DNA of 11,964 nt from Waddliaceae bacterium (GTDB lineage: Bacteria; Chlamydiota; Chlamydiia; Chlamydiales; SLFE01), in the NCBI GenBank assembly GCA_963783885.1, contig CAWAPJ010000033.1:1-11964 (forward strand). Direction: 5' to 3'. Of the stretch, positions 1,953 to 4,698 are shown one piece after another. Every line of letters starts with the position of its first letter. Position 1 is the first letter of the stretch. Position numbers and translations under genes: made by a program. The notes under the pieces are model-generated. The model was not told where the DNA came from. It saw nothing but the letters and a program-made list of their open reading frames with translations, and made no database searches.

Positions 1953-2813
1953 ATGACGGCAAGGGTTTGGATTTTTTGTGCGCTGTTGATTTCTGCGGCC
2001 ATATTGTCTGCCGGTTCGGATGATGAGCCTCCAGAAATCGGGAATTTTTCTCTCCCCGCTTCCCAGCAGGTGGGTCCCTTTTACAGCTTTGGAGATTTGA
2101 TTATTGATAAAGGACAGGTTCAGTTTCTCTTTTATGTGCAGGATTTAAGAGGGAAAAACAGTTCGTACATCGATATATACCCGACACTTATCTACGGCGC
2201 TACTGATAACACCACCCTATCGTTTGCAGTTCCTGTTGCTTCTTACAAAGAGGAGAATTCTGCCTCATCGGGTTTTGAAGATCTCTATTTTCAGGTTGAG
2301 TATGCCTTTTATACGGCGAGCACAAAGACTTATGCTGATCAGGCCACAGTGGTCGCTTCTGTTTCTGTTCCTACAGGGTCTGCAGACGAAGATCCCATGA
2401 CAGGCTTCGGAAATCCGGGATATTTTTTGGGAATGACATTGAATCGAATGACAGTCGATTGGTTTGCATTTATGAATTACGGGGCCTTGTTCAATCCCAC
2501 ATTTAAATCTTTAGATATAGGGGATCAATATTATTACCAGTATGGACTTTCACGGGTGATCTCGACCTGGAAGGGGTGGCTTTTTGCCTGGCTTTTGGAG
2601 TTGGATGGGACTTACACCAAACAAAATCGTATCAACGGCGTTTTGGATCCCGATTCGGGAGGAAATGAGGTTTTGTTAATTCCCTCCCTTTGGATATCCT
2701 CTGAAAAGATTATCATACAATTCGGAGCGGGATATCCCATTTATCAGAATTTGAATGGCAATCAGCCGACCAGCCGATATCTTATTGCCGCAGATTTCTT
2801 ATGGACTTTTTAA
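1953..2813 (+). CDS. Exported protein, probable outer-membrane beta-barrel ('transporter'/MetA-pathway-like family)
   Basis: N-terminal signal peptide, aromatic-rich alternating beta-strand pattern, motifs SGFEDLYFQVEY, SVPTGS and DPDSGGNEVLLIPSL, and a C-terminal Phe (ADFLWTF). Confidence 0.7.
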   Translation: MTARVWIFCALLISAAILSAGSDDEPPEIGNFSLPASQQVGPFYSFGDLIIDKGQVQFLFYVQDLRGKNSSYIDIYPTLIYGATDNTTLSFAVPVASYKEENSASSGFEDLYFQVEYAFYTASTKTYADQATVVASVSVPTGSADEDPMTGFGNPGYFLGMTLNRMTVDWFAFMNYGALFNPTFKSLDIGDQYYYQYGLSRVISTWKGWLFAWLLELDGTYTKQNRINGVLDPDSGGNEVLLIPSLWISSEKIIIQFGAGYPIYQNLNGNQPTSRYLIAADFLWTF

Positions 2814-3360
2814 AATTTCCTTCGCCCATCATCTTGTATGCGACATTGCGGCTGTCGACATTGGTTTTTAAAAGAGACCCTTCATAAGGCTGCTCGTAGG
2901 TTTCAAAAAAAGTTCTCGGTTCTTCTTTTTTAAATCCTTGCCGGGTTGAATGGCAGAGCAGGCCGCTTGCCGCCAAGGCCACATGTCCTACTAGTTTTTC
3001 GCATTGTCTATTTTTGGCGAAGATAAGGTCCCCATCGCGGAGGCTGCGCGGGGTAACATAAAGAAGCTTCCATCGATGAATTTTCAACAGCATCCTTGGC
3101 ATGTCGCCGATATAGTAGACAGGAAGTTTTGCATGGGCGGCCTGCTGGATGATATAGGCGACTGCCGTTAAGCAGTCTGTCGTATGAGGCGCCTCTTCAA
3201 GAGTTGTCTTCTTTTTGTACTTGGATAAGTTGAGTTCTTTAAGGGATTGACAAAGTTTTTCCCTGTCAAACACAAGAGATTCGTTGCGAATAACAAATAT
3301 ATTGAATTCAGCTCCTAAAATTCTAGCAAAAGAGTAAAGACTTTTTGGTTTTTTTGGCAA
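2782..3360 (-). CDS. NlpC/P60-like (papain-fold) cysteine hydrolase; start codon uncertain
   Basis: DC63LTAVAY, GDLIF, GH126VAL and H137S match the NlpC/P60 Cys-His-His layout. The only in-frame start near the 5' end is TTG 3360. The 3' end overlaps the convergent gene by 32 bp. Confidence 0.7.
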   Translation of the reverse strand: MPKKPKSLYSFARILGAEFNIFVIRNESLVFDREKLCQSLKELNLSKYKKKTTLEEAPHTTDCLTAVAYIIQQAAHAKLPVYYIGDMPRMLLKIHRWKLLYVTPRSLRDGDLIFAKNRQCEKLVGHVALAASGLLCHSTRQGFKKEEPRTFFETYEQPYEGSLLKTNVDSRNVAYKMMGEGNFKKSIRNLRQ

Positions 3361-3409
3361 GTTTTCATAAATAGTTGCTTTCTTTGAGTTAATTTTTTAC
3401 GTTGAGATT

Positions 3410-3682
3410 ATGAGAGTCCATAGACTAATTTTTTTGCTGCTCACAACTGTTTTTCTAAACTTAGAAGCTTGTTCCAGGGTTTTCTGGGACAATGCAGCAA
3501 GCAAAGTGGCCACTCGTACAATGGATCTTTATACCAATGAAGATCCTCAGTTTACTCTCTCTCCCCGAGGAATTCCTAAAACCGGAGGAGACCTTCAAAA
3601 TCCTGCAAAGTGGACCTCGAAATGGGGAAGTGTCGTGGTCACGGCTTTTAAAAAACCTGTCTCTGGAAATAACAGATTATAA
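3410..3682 (+). pseudogene. Truncated linear amide C-N hydrolase (choloylglycine hydrolase / penicillin V acylase, Ntn fold)
   Basis: Signal peptide ending LEA, then the nucleophile Cys in CSRVFW, RTMD, PRG and WTSKWGSVV. It stops at 90 aa, before the conserved (D/E)GMNEKGL motif; full-length members are over 300 aa. Confidence 0.82.
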
Positions 3683-3688
3683 TCGCTG

Positions 3689-3916
3689 CTAACGCACAAT
3701 AGGGCCTCTGATTTCCGGATTTAATATCTCAGGGTTCCTAATTACAGGGTCTCTTATTACCGGCCCTCTAATTTCAGGATCTCTAATGATAGGATCTCTC
3801 ACCACAGGGCCTCTTGGGAAGGCTCTTATGGCGACATCCGAATTTTGAGCTATGGCATTATCCGGAATTAAGAAAAATGCTGAGAAAATAATGGAAATAA
3901 TAACTAATTTACTCAT
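3689..3916 (-). CDS. Small secreted protein with 8 tandem R-[GDN]-P-x-[IV] pentapeptide repeats
   Basis: GAGG RBS upstream of the ATG, signal peptide ending AIA, then RGPVV RDPII RDPEI RGPVI RDPVI RNPEI LNPEI RGPIV R*. Many differences between DNA units are synonymous. Confidence 0.8.
   Translation of the reverse strand: MSKLVIISIIFSAFFLIPDNAIAQNSDVAIRAFPRGPVVRDPIIRDPEIRGPVIRDPVIRNPEILNPEIRGPIVR
3692..3814 (-). repeat. Degenerate 15-bp tandem repeat, 8 copies (coding)
   Basis: Units such as AGAGGCCCTGTGGTG, AGAGATCCTATCATT, AGAGATCCTGAAATT and AGAGACCCTGTAATT on the minus strand. Confidence 0.9.
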
Positions 3917-4072
3917 GATATTTTCCTCTAATAATAACCTATTACTATAATATTAATTATAATATTTTTTATTTTAAAAACAAATAACAAATTGTTTTTT
4001 GTGTTTGCAGGATAATTCTTAGTTGTTGAATATCAGTCACATACAGTTAAAAGAGCCTATTGTTTCCAGATA

Positions 4073-4081
4073 GTAACAAAA
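4073..4081. repeat. Target site duplication, left copy (GTAACAAAA)
   Basis: Identical to 4690-4698 and abuts the left IR. A 9-bp duplication is typical of IS903-group elements. Confidence 0.92.
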
Positions 4082-4140
4082 GGCTTGGTTGCACAATTCA
4101 CCACAGAGCCCACAAGAGCGCACAGAGAGAATATGAGAGA
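4082..4140 (+). repeat. Extended left inverted end: 18-bp IR plus three CACAGAG-type repeats
   Basis: CACAGAG 4102-4108, CACAAGAG 4111-4118, CACAGAG 4121-4127. Hand alignment to the revcomp of 4632-4689 gives 46/59 identities. Confidence 0.85.
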
Positions 4141-4146
4141 TTTGCT

Positions 4147-4484
4147 TTAAGCTGCTATTAATTCACTTTCAGGCATTCCCAGCCTTGTCATTATGTTTAG
4201 TGCTTCGCATTTTTCCCTTGATTCAGCCCTTTGAGTTTCCAGGGTTCTGCTTCTTAAATGATTTCACTAGAGTCAGGACAAACTGCTAAGTGGAGTTTTC
4301 TCCATGTTCGCCTTTTACTATAACCATGCTGCCTAACCTTCCACTCACCTTCTCCATATACTTTCAAACCGGTTGAATCGATTACAATATCGGTTACATT
4401 TTTTCCAGAAACCTTTTTCAATTCTTGTCCAAGCAATCTTGCTCTTCGACAAATTTGGGTATAAGAAGGGATGGGTAAACCCAC
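4147..4484 (-). pseudogene. IS5/IS903-group DDE transposase remnant (two fused fragments)
   Basis: 4484-4257 reads GLPIPSYTQICRRA...IDSTGLKVYGEGEWKVRQHG.SKRRTWRKLHLAV (first catalytic Asp region). 4257-4147, in another frame, reads LRSRTLETQRAESREKCEALNIMTRLGMPESELIAA* (typical C-terminus). The N-terminus and the rest of the catalytic core are absent. Confidence 0.93.
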
Positions 4485-4486
4485 AG

Positions 4487-4627
4487 ATAAAATCTGTGGC
4501 TAATCTCTTGCCTGTGCATGAAGCCCAACTTCTATCATATCTTAAGCATAATGGTGGTGGCAGGGGTTTGCTTATCAATTACAATGTAAAACTTCTTAAA
4601 AATGGGATTAGGCGACTAATCATTTAA
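4487..4627 (+). pseudogene. C-terminal fragment of a GxxExxY (PD-(D/E)xK nuclease-like) protein
   Basis: IKSVANLLPVHEAQLLSYLKHNGGGRGLLINYNVKLLKNGIRRLII* matches the family C-terminal pattern E-[LI]-K-[SA]-V...P-[IV]-H-E-A-Q-L-L-[TS]-Y-L-K...G-L-L-I-N-F-N...G-I-x-R. Confidence 0.88.
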
Positions 4628-4631
4628 TTCC

Positions 4632-4689
4632 TCTCCCATAATCTCTCAGTGAGCTCGGTGATCTCAGTGGTGATTTATGCAACAACGCC
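4632..4689 (-). repeat. Extended right inverted end: three CACnGAG repeats plus 18-bp IR
   Basis: CTCAGTG 4645-4651, CTCGGTG 4654-4660 and CTCAGTG 4663-4669 (9-bp period), followed by the IR at 4672-4689. Confidence 0.85.
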
Positions 4690-4698
4690 GTAACAAAA
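4690..4698. repeat. Target site duplication, right copy (GTAACAAAA)
   Basis: Identical to 4073-4081 and abuts the right IR. Confidence 0.92.

Follow-up and report, generated by a model that had tools for sequence, protein, structure and literature searches.

What a gene for a protein of the GxxExxY family is doing between the ends of an insertion sequence (IS) is the question raised by positions 4073 to 4698 of the DNA analysed here. The window, by which we mean the entire stretch of 11,964 nt, is contig C33 of a 2.16-Mb, 46-contig assembly (88.9% complete) of a Waddliaceae-like chlamydial genome. The GxxExxY proteins (PF13366/TIGR04256) form a large family across bacteria and archaea whose function is not known; the sole statement on the family itself that we found in the literature is a table entry in PMC3424549, where the function is given as "Unknown". 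We find that the segment is a dead, non-autonomous remnant of a 1,564-bp IS5-family, IS903-group element with two divergent genes, one for a DDE transposase and one for GxxExxY. The IS903 group itself is classical; what is new is that IS903-type repeats are joined to the word arms of GxxExxY at both ends. Our preferred reading, to which we assign a probability of about 0.6, is that GxxExxY and its arms constitute a nested cassette that became fixed in this IS lineage, acts on its own arms, is kept for that activity and is unneeded for the chemistry of the transposase.

The complete element is represented in the same genome by nine full-length copies, termed type A, of 1,561-1,567 bp and 98.6-100% identity in blastn searches with the reference copy (L006). 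Each reads terminal repeat, arm, transposase gene, intergenic region, GxxExxY gene, arm, terminal repeat, with a 314-aa transposase encoded on the minus strand and directed outward to the left, an intergenic region of 84 bp and a divergent 135-aa GxxExxY directed outward to the right. The open reading frames (ORFs) are intact in all nine copies (314 aa for the transposase, 134-135 aa for GxxExxY), and the 1,564 bp of L006 hold no methylase or other partner gene besides these two. The preliminary description, made from the window's sequence, had proposed just such a two-gene ancestor with outward-reading genes between one pair of inverted repeats, and the intact copies display this layout around their central 84 bp. 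The contrary outcome it had considered, intact relatives with a transposase only, is not what was found, as both genes are present in 9/9 same-genome copies and also in other genomes and metagenomes. It had also suggested looking for divergent pairs of these genes with different duplications; seven of the nine full-length copies have perfect, mutually different 9-bp duplications. Such target duplications are also present at the window copy and at the copies on contigs C28 and C16. All 16 TIGR04256 matches in the genome lie inside copies of the 1,564-bp element, and one same-genus genome gave 13 right-end matches. The two-gene unit moves as one piece and leaves 9-bp target duplications, as expected for an IS903-type DDE transposase, and it has been active recently, as its near-identical copies and clean insertion sites show. 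An older subtype, type B, is 83-95% identical and comprises the window copy and copies on C6, C12, C28 and C32; all type-B transposase genes examined are interrupted, truncated or stop-bearing.

The intact transposase matches NF033579 (1.2e-85; cut-off 140 bits), DDE_Tnp_1_5 (PF13737; 1.4e-33; N-terminal region) and DDE_Tnp_1 (PF01609; 1.7e-20; core), and it is 43-44% identical to the annotated transposases of IS903 and IS903B over 99% of the length. Between the divergent start codons, the 84-bp region (L006 1152-1235 and its relatives) carries a AAATTAGAGTATT-like motif followed by TTTG..GCAAG, conserved across lineages, which is a candidate shared promoter or operator. A central divergent promoter had been predicted from the window. 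When the 84 bp were scanned for consensus sigma-70 sites, nothing promoter-like emerged, a result that is uninformative on the promoters of Chlamydiae. In the promoter and terminator consensus scan of a full-length copy, the counts were equal to those in shuffled sequences.

The ends of the element, read by eye from the sequence, are composite. Each begins with a 19-20-bp repeat starting GGC(T/G)TTGTTGC, followed directly by three CAC[ACT]GAG words at 8-9-bp spacing and, further inward, by a short GAGAG-rich inner part. The three-word design occurs at both ends in our own types A and B and in L182, L183 and L202, at the transposase end in L027, L030, L184, L185, L186 and L194 (with degenerate words in L185, L186 and L194), and at the GxxExxY end in L103 and L117; that is, the same design recurs in every member with readable ends. 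In contrast, the GxxExxY-less relatives L029, L187, L188, L191, L193, L196, L197 and L211, of which the transposase end was read, have the short repeat only, and those with two paired ends measure about 1.09-1.16 kb. The inner arms are a feature of GxxExxY and not of IS903. The extended inverted ends had already been noticed in the window, and they are present; their nature as GxxExxY-cassette arms joined to IS903-type repeats had not been recognised. In one GxxExxY-less sister (L187), CACAGAG-like words lie in the outer flank beyond the transposase-side end, a hint that word arrays may attract insertions of this IS group to their vicinity.

Do the arms travel with GxxExxY outside this IS? We examined the closest 80 GxxExxY loci in the genome collection, of which 76 could be tested and four had no room or no clean match. 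An inverted repeat across the gene, scoring above the 95th percentile of shifted-window controls, was found at 65/76 loci vs 1/73 controls, and these repeats are made of CACAGAG-like words. The IS903-borne L101, L103 and L117 are among the 11 loci that failed, since in them the transposase gene stands between GxxExxY and the upstream arm. That the same armed GxxExxY occurs without any transposase, and also inside an IS630-family element, points away from a role as partner in transposition. In a genome of Parachlamydiales (L102), a free-standing cassette with a 71% identical protein sits among housekeeping neighbours, and its arms are IS-like down to the inner part; L109 is likewise placed amid housekeeping genes. 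The same-genus genome G002 has a free-standing GxxExxY (L264 1227-1777; 79% identical) directly after an mreC-like gene. The downstream arm at L264 is similar to the arm on the transposase side of the IS; beyond it come a stretch like a degenerate repeat and then the beginning of a further arm.

A second carrier belongs to a different IS family. Another Waddliaceae genome holds five copies (L104-L108, about 2331-4094 in each locus) of an IS630-family element of about 1,765 bp, which are 99.8-99.9% identical, are flanked by TA, encode a DDE_3 transposase (2.1e-34) and have ends beginning TATACCTCT. Its passenger, arm-GxxExxY-arm with a 62% identical protein, is placed between the left element end and the transposase gene's 3' end, and here the arms bracket GxxExxY only. 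The IS903 lineage has the transposase gene between GxxExxY and the upstream arm, so that both genes lie within the arms and each arm adjoins a terminal repeat. These arrangements show GxxExxY and its word arms to be one module that also exists free-standing in many phyla and inside the IS630-family element, and whose arms have become part of both ends in the IS903 clade. Among related chlamydial genomes, no fewer than two IS families have taken up the module.

Word arrays also occur outside these settings. The genome contains 47 double-word arrays vs 1.6 in shuffles, 36 of them inside IS copies and 11 outside. Two stretches outside the IS copies, C28:64021-64140 and C40:1138-1235 (L269), are gene-less arm-loop-arm elements of CAC.GAG words, and the former folds as a DNA hairpin (z = -5.5). 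In G016, from another family of the same order, many weak matches to the GxxExxY 3' end plus arm recur at a spacing of about 345 bp on C44 (93891-94738), C30 (108988-109814, 90341-90819) and other contigs, which suggests tandem arrays of arm-bearing units.

To place the partnership in the transposase family, the closest 80 transposase loci in genomes and 80 in metagenomes were sampled. GxxExxY stands beside the transposase gene in nine of the 80 genome loci, eight of them from one Waddliaceae assembly with identical transposases and the ninth being L027 (transposase 68%, GxxExxY 70% identical to our element). It lies upstream in 9/80 metagenome loci (L181, L182, L183, L202, L184, L185, L189, L194 and L190). 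Identities of transposase and GxxExxY to our own are 86/87% for L182, 71/87% for L183 and 74/69% for L202; L184, L185 and L189 give partial GxxExxY matches at contig ends, and L194 and L190 are more distant, the latter with GxxExxY on the same strand as the transposase gene. The search from the GxxExxY side added L103, with both genes, and L117, a deletion derivative. A quick maximum-likelihood tree was built from the 147/160 transposase loci that were free of stops and had 280 or more aligned residues; these amounted to 126 distinct sequences, to which our own was added (L028, L030, L032, L062, L189, L202 and L211 are among those dropped). In this 127-row tree our element falls in an 8-row clade (SH-aLRT, an approximate likelihood-ratio branch test, 87), and GxxExxY accompanies the transposase in 7/8 rows; the eighth, L186, has the words and only 79 bp of upstream sequence. 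Overall, 11 members with a transposase at least 65% identical could be assessed, and every one of them has kept GxxExxY. The paired identities of transposase and GxxExxY (86/87, 71/87, 74/69 and 68/70%) give a hint of exchange. In the 84-row GxxExxY tree, from which three short partials and stop-bearing loci were dropped, a 16-row clade (SH-aLRT 94) unites nine IS903-borne, five IS630-borne and two free-standing proteins (L102 and L109). Among the matches listed from the protein database, at least 112 transposase clusters have at least 64% identity and none is IS-named; since the clade is common in metagenomes, it may represent a sizeable IS group that has yet to receive a name.

Purifying selection acts on both genes. 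When our element is compared with L182 and L183, GxxExxY has ratios of non-synonymous to synonymous substitution rates (dN/dS; Nei-Gojobori script) of 0.04 and 0.07, and the transposase has ratios of 0.08 and 0.12; against L027, synonymous sites are saturated. Moreover, the type-B GxxExxY on C6 differs from type A at 5/311 non-synonymous and 17/94 synonymous sites (pN 0.016, pS 0.181, as proportions of differing sites), and the type-B transposase fragment on C32 has stops. The low pN relative to pS therefore indicates that GxxExxY is kept even beside a dead transposase gene of its own. The earlier suggestion that GxxExxY is no chance cargo gains support from its clade-wide retention, the purifying selection and the arms at both ends.

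The protein itself is a well-defined member of its family. Full-length GxxExxY matches PDDEXK_3 at 8e-42 and TIGR04256 at 1.3e-43 (148 bits, cut-off 35; profile positions 2-115 of 116), and D79, E89, K91, E39, Y42 and Q103 are invariant in 39 aligned GxxExxY proteins. The structure is predicted confidently (mean predicted local distance difference test, pLDDT, 91.2), and the model shows the PD-(D/E)xK core fold with the D...(D/E)xK residues. A sequence search of solved structures returned nothing significant (best E 0.38, RelE), and Foldseek gave no row at E <= 0.001, the best being Hjc (E 6.8e-3) and Cas4 SSO0001; with VIA-align, the nuclease domain of CinB (Z 7.7) and R.SwaI (Z 7.6) came first, at only middling Z values. 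These matches therefore identify the general fold only and no specific structural relative. GxxExxY matched neither the PADLOC defence models nor PHROGs. The prediction of a complex of transposase and GxxExxY ended as "no answer" (score 0.00, mark 0.32), and we weighed it neither way.

Against this background, the window copy can be read feature by feature as follows.

4073-4081, no strand: left 9-bp target-site duplication GTAACAAAA, from the direct-repeat search
4082-4100, plus strand: left terminal inverted repeat of IS903 type, 19 nt, starting GGCTTGGTTGC, from the repeat search and comparison with IS903B
4101-4142, plus strand: left subterminal arm with the words CACAGAG (4102-4108), CACAAGAG (4112-4119) and CACAGAG (4122-4128), the same design as in free-standing cassettes
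within 4101-4142, plus strand: inner part of the left arm, GAGAG..TATGAGAGA
4147-4265, minus strand: 3' end of the transposase gene with the C-terminal residues, stop at 4147-4149, from blastn (reference up to 196)
4256-4494, minus strand: middle part of the transposase gene, reference 542-780, from blastn and the hidden Markov model (HMM) match
4254-4484, minus strand: ORF with the DSTGLKVYGEGEWK region of the transposase, from the ORF list
about 4256-4265: deletion of reference 196-542 in the transposase gene, from blastn
4485-4494, no strand: deletion junction at the 10-nt direct repeat AGATAAAATC, reference 780/1372, from blastn
4487-4627, plus strand: 3' third of the GxxExxY gene with its stop at 4625-4627, covering profile positions 73/74-116 in the HMM match
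4631-4670, minus strand: right subterminal arm with the words CACTGAG (4663-4669), CACCGAG (4654-4660) and CACTGAG (4645-4651), read on the minus strand
4671-4689, minus strand: right terminal inverted repeat of IS903 type, the minus strand reading GGCGTTGTTGC...
4690-4698, no strand: right 9-bp target-site duplication GTAACAAAA, from the direct-repeat search

The copy proper occupies 4082-4689 (608 bp), with the perfect 9-bp duplication outside and inverted ends of about 60 bp inside. The repeat search aligned 4082-4113 with 4658-4689 (32 nt, 78% complementary) and found an inward continuation at 4134-4142 and 4640-4648. The stop codons of the minus-strand transposase frame (4147-4149) and of the plus-strand ORF at 4373..4627 (4625-4627), which encodes the GxxExxY C-terminus, lie inside, or just past, the innermost aligned stretch of these ends. 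That the segment is bounded by IS903-type ends with the duplication GTAACAAAA at 4073-4081 and 4690-4698, and that it holds the 3' parts of a leftward IS5 transposase gene and a rightward GxxExxY gene, had been stated before. The repeat search bears out the former, and the reading frames and HMM matches the latter. The GxxExxY match, on which the earlier assignment had been made to depend, is present at 4373-4624 (PDDEXK_3, 1e-08, positions 74-116 of 117; TIGR04256, 2.9e-09, 37.3 bits against a cut-off of 35, positions 73-116 only), and 4257-4484 on the minus strand matches DDE_Tnp_1_5 (5.2e-07) and the IS5-family model NF033579 (1.1e-20). The 626-bp segment has 50 matches in the same genome and is therefore not a chance structure.

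In blastn, the window copy consists of three collinear pieces of the 1,564-bp element (reference 10-196, 542-780 and 1372-1577), which implies two internal deletions. The deletion of reference 780-1372 took the intergenic region together with the adjoining 5' parts of both genes, a third of the transposase gene and two-thirds of the GxxExxY gene. The 10-nt direct repeat AGATAAAATC is present in both genes; a deletion between its two copies removed both promoter-proximal gene halves, and a second piece of the transposase gene was lost later. With both ends, a duplication, no functional transposase and intact copies elsewhere in the genome, the window copy resembles a miniature inverted-repeat transposable element (MITE); at 608 bp and with gene fragments inside, it counts as a deletion derivative and not as a MITE of the classical, short kind. 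An empty site had been proposed as a check. G001, a genome of the same genus, has the flanking genes and lacks the element at the syntenic place, with 69 bp between the matched blocks vs 762 bp in the window, while a base-exact empty site with a single GTAACAAAA could not be shown there, the intergenic spacer being too diverged (flanks 72-86%). Further left in the window, an ORF of 75 aa (3689-3916, minus strand) with a hydrophobic N-terminus and repeated IRDP/IRGP/IRNP peptide units has no Pfam match.

The 780/1372 junction is identical in the type-B copies on C28, C32 and C33. Because the C28 and C33 copies share this junction and have different perfect duplications (C32 has none), a derivative lacking both gene starts has spread, presumably with help in trans. 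Contig C16 has a gene-less derivative of type A, 378 bp long, with its own duplication. An IS982-family element of about 1.09 kb (NF033520, 3.6e-43), present in dozens of copies in the genome of the window, has inserted into the transposase gene of two type-B copies, at one and the same position (C6:40376-41471 and C28:22407-23037, L268 655-1494); the way in which this insertion and the shared deletion are distributed over C6, C28 and C32 calls for recurrence or recombination.

The two ends within one element tend toward likeness. In L183, words and spacers are identical in both arms through the inner ATTATGAG part, and L202 has 8-bp spacing in both arms. The left end of the C6 copy (C6:39949-40020) combines a left-type terminal repeat with the right-end word set; this points directly to conversion between the two inverted arms. 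As for the origin of the composite, we considered a cassette inserted into an IS, an IS inserted into a cassette, and a two-copy compound followed by deletion; none yields the observed order in one step.

How should the partnership be read? If GxxExxY and its arms form a nested cassette, as we favour, the DDE transposase alone would perform transposition by acting on the terminal repeats, the PD-(D/E)xK nuclease would act on its own word arms by binding or cutting, and selection on this arm-directed activity would keep the gene; conversion between the two ends could be a by-product. Several points weigh against this account. That GxxExxY binds the words we infer only from their co-occurrence. 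Clade-wide retention fits an element-level need equally well, as do arms about 20 bp from both termini and the shared intergenic motif. The trees come from quick searches with moderate support (SH-aLRT 87 and 94), and two further carriers, L190 and L194, fall outside the core clade, so that more than one capture is possible. The duplication is missing in 2/9 full-length copies and in the copies on C32 and C6. Derivatives mobilised in trans can obtain both proteins from intact copies, and the deletion derivatives therefore do not show that GxxExxY is dispensable. Finally, we could not reconstruct the route by which an arm reached its place between the left terminal repeat and the transposase stop.

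Alternatively, GxxExxY might serve transposition itself as a second subunit, either by recognising the subterminal words at both ends and making a TnsA-like cut in the strand spared by the DDE transposase or by controlling synapsis or frequency. The intact, invariant catalytic D-E-K residues, the words that lie about 20 bp inside either terminus in every member read, the clade-wide retention under strong purifying selection, the divergent genes with a conserved intergenic motif common to both, and the presence of both genes intact in 9/9 full-length copies all agree with such a role. Nevertheless, we regard it as rather unlikely. Most armed GxxExxY genes have no nearby transposase (65/76 loci with arms; L102 and L109 amid housekeeping genes), the arms in the IS630-family carrier bracket GxxExxY alone and not the element ends, and sister IS903-group elements with the same repeat type manage at about 1.1 kb without words or GxxExxY. 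Furthermore, type-B GxxExxY is under purifying selection beside dead transposase genes and, to our knowledge, the IS903 transposase needs no second protein. A bolder version, which we put forward tentatively and think somewhat more doubtful still, makes nuclease and arms a second end-recognition module working with the DDE transposase and reading the three words about 20 bp inside each terminus; GxxExxY would then either cleave the strand that is not transferred or decide whether cut-and-paste or replicative products arise. If true, this would be a two-protein transposon built from an IS903-type element, and the orphan GxxExxY family would have its first mechanistic role in word-guided cleavage at inverted arms. 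An ordinary host-beneficial cargo, a restriction-like or defence nuclease in a transporter IS and unlinked to the ends, seems improbable to us. The generic restriction-endonuclease-like PD-(D/E)xK fold (the CinB, R.SwaI, Hjc and Cas4 SSO0001 rows) would suit it, and transporter ISs with passenger genes are described (PMC3129680), yet GxxExxY comes with inverted word arms of its own that have been retained at both ends of the element, has no PADLOC or PHROG match and no methylase or partner gene within the 1,564 bp, and belongs to a family whose function is tabled as unknown (PMC3424549). As for a single event of nested insertion and deletion that never involved a two-gene element, which the gene fragments of the window copy taken by themselves might suggest, there is next to no chance of it: nine intact two-gene copies, with duplications among them, in the same genome refute it, and the 13 right-end matches in the same-genus genome and the diverged two-gene relatives L027, L103, L182, L183 and L202 stand against it as well.

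The element shows that an IS can absorb another repeat-plus-enzyme module so fully that the arms of the module join the ends of the IS. It also offers a compact natural construct of 1.56 kb in which the roles of nuclease and arms are open to standard transposition and DNA-binding assays. A literature search, with ISfinder and paper supplements outside its scope, found no published description either of an IS903-group clade with fixed GxxExxY and composite ends or of the GxxExxY/arm module itself.

Among known systems, IS903 and IS903B are the closest. IS903 itself produces a 9-bp target duplication, as does the two-gene element, and both have a DDE transposase of about 310 aa with DDE_Tnp_1_5 and DDE_Tnp_1 domains. 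The terminal repeats begin alike with GGC(T/G)TTGTTG; those of the IS903B copy in L267 (1,057 bp) begin GGCTTTGTTGAATAAATC and GGTTTTGTTGAATAAATC, and those of the two-gene element begin GGCTTTGTTGC and GGCGTTGTTGC, with the GGC start and the length of about 18-20 bp typical of the IS903 group. In type of DDE transposase, terminal repeats and 9-bp duplication the element thus belongs to that group; it departs from the usual 1.05 kb or so with a transposase alone by its 1,564 bp and a second, divergent gene of 135 aa, compared with 1,057 bp and one gene in IS903B. Its ends are inverted over about 60 bp, each 19-20-bp repeat being extended inward by a three-word arm, and these arms are missing in the closest GxxExxY-less relatives.

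Transporter ISs, which carry passenger genes between their terminal repeats, are a described class (PMC3129680). Like them, our element holds a non-transposase gene, GxxExxY, inside its terminal repeats and moves together with it. It differs from them in that a single passenger is present throughout a transposase clade under strong purifying selection, and in that this passenger brings its own repeat arms, which occupy both element ends. The free-standing GxxExxY cassettes share the protein family (50-79% identity), the CAC.GAG words, the 8-9-bp spacing and the three-word arms; in the IS, by contrast, the upstream arm and GxxExxY have the transposase gene between them, an IS903-type repeat caps each arm, and movement leaves 9-bp duplications at these repeats.

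Two further comparisons concern the pairing of enzyme and repeats. Tn7 has a heteromeric transposase in which TnsA, a nuclease with a restriction-enzyme fold, works with the DDE protein TnsB, and our element likewise encodes a PD-(D/E)xK-fold protein beside a DDE transposase within one transposon; GxxExxY, however, has no sequence or specific fold match to TnsA among the matches listed, and its DDE partner is of another family. In the repetitive extragenic palindrome (REP) systems with REP-associated tyrosine transposases (RAYT), also known from the REPIN units, a small HUH Y1 transposase gene is flanked by inverted repeat units. The GxxExxY module resembles them in having one small enzyme gene between inverted repeat units, with gene-less palindromic copies elsewhere, as at C28:64021-64140 and C40:1138-1235, whereas its enzyme is a PD-(D/E)xK nuclease rather than an HUH Y1 transposase, and its gene rides inside a DDE transposon.

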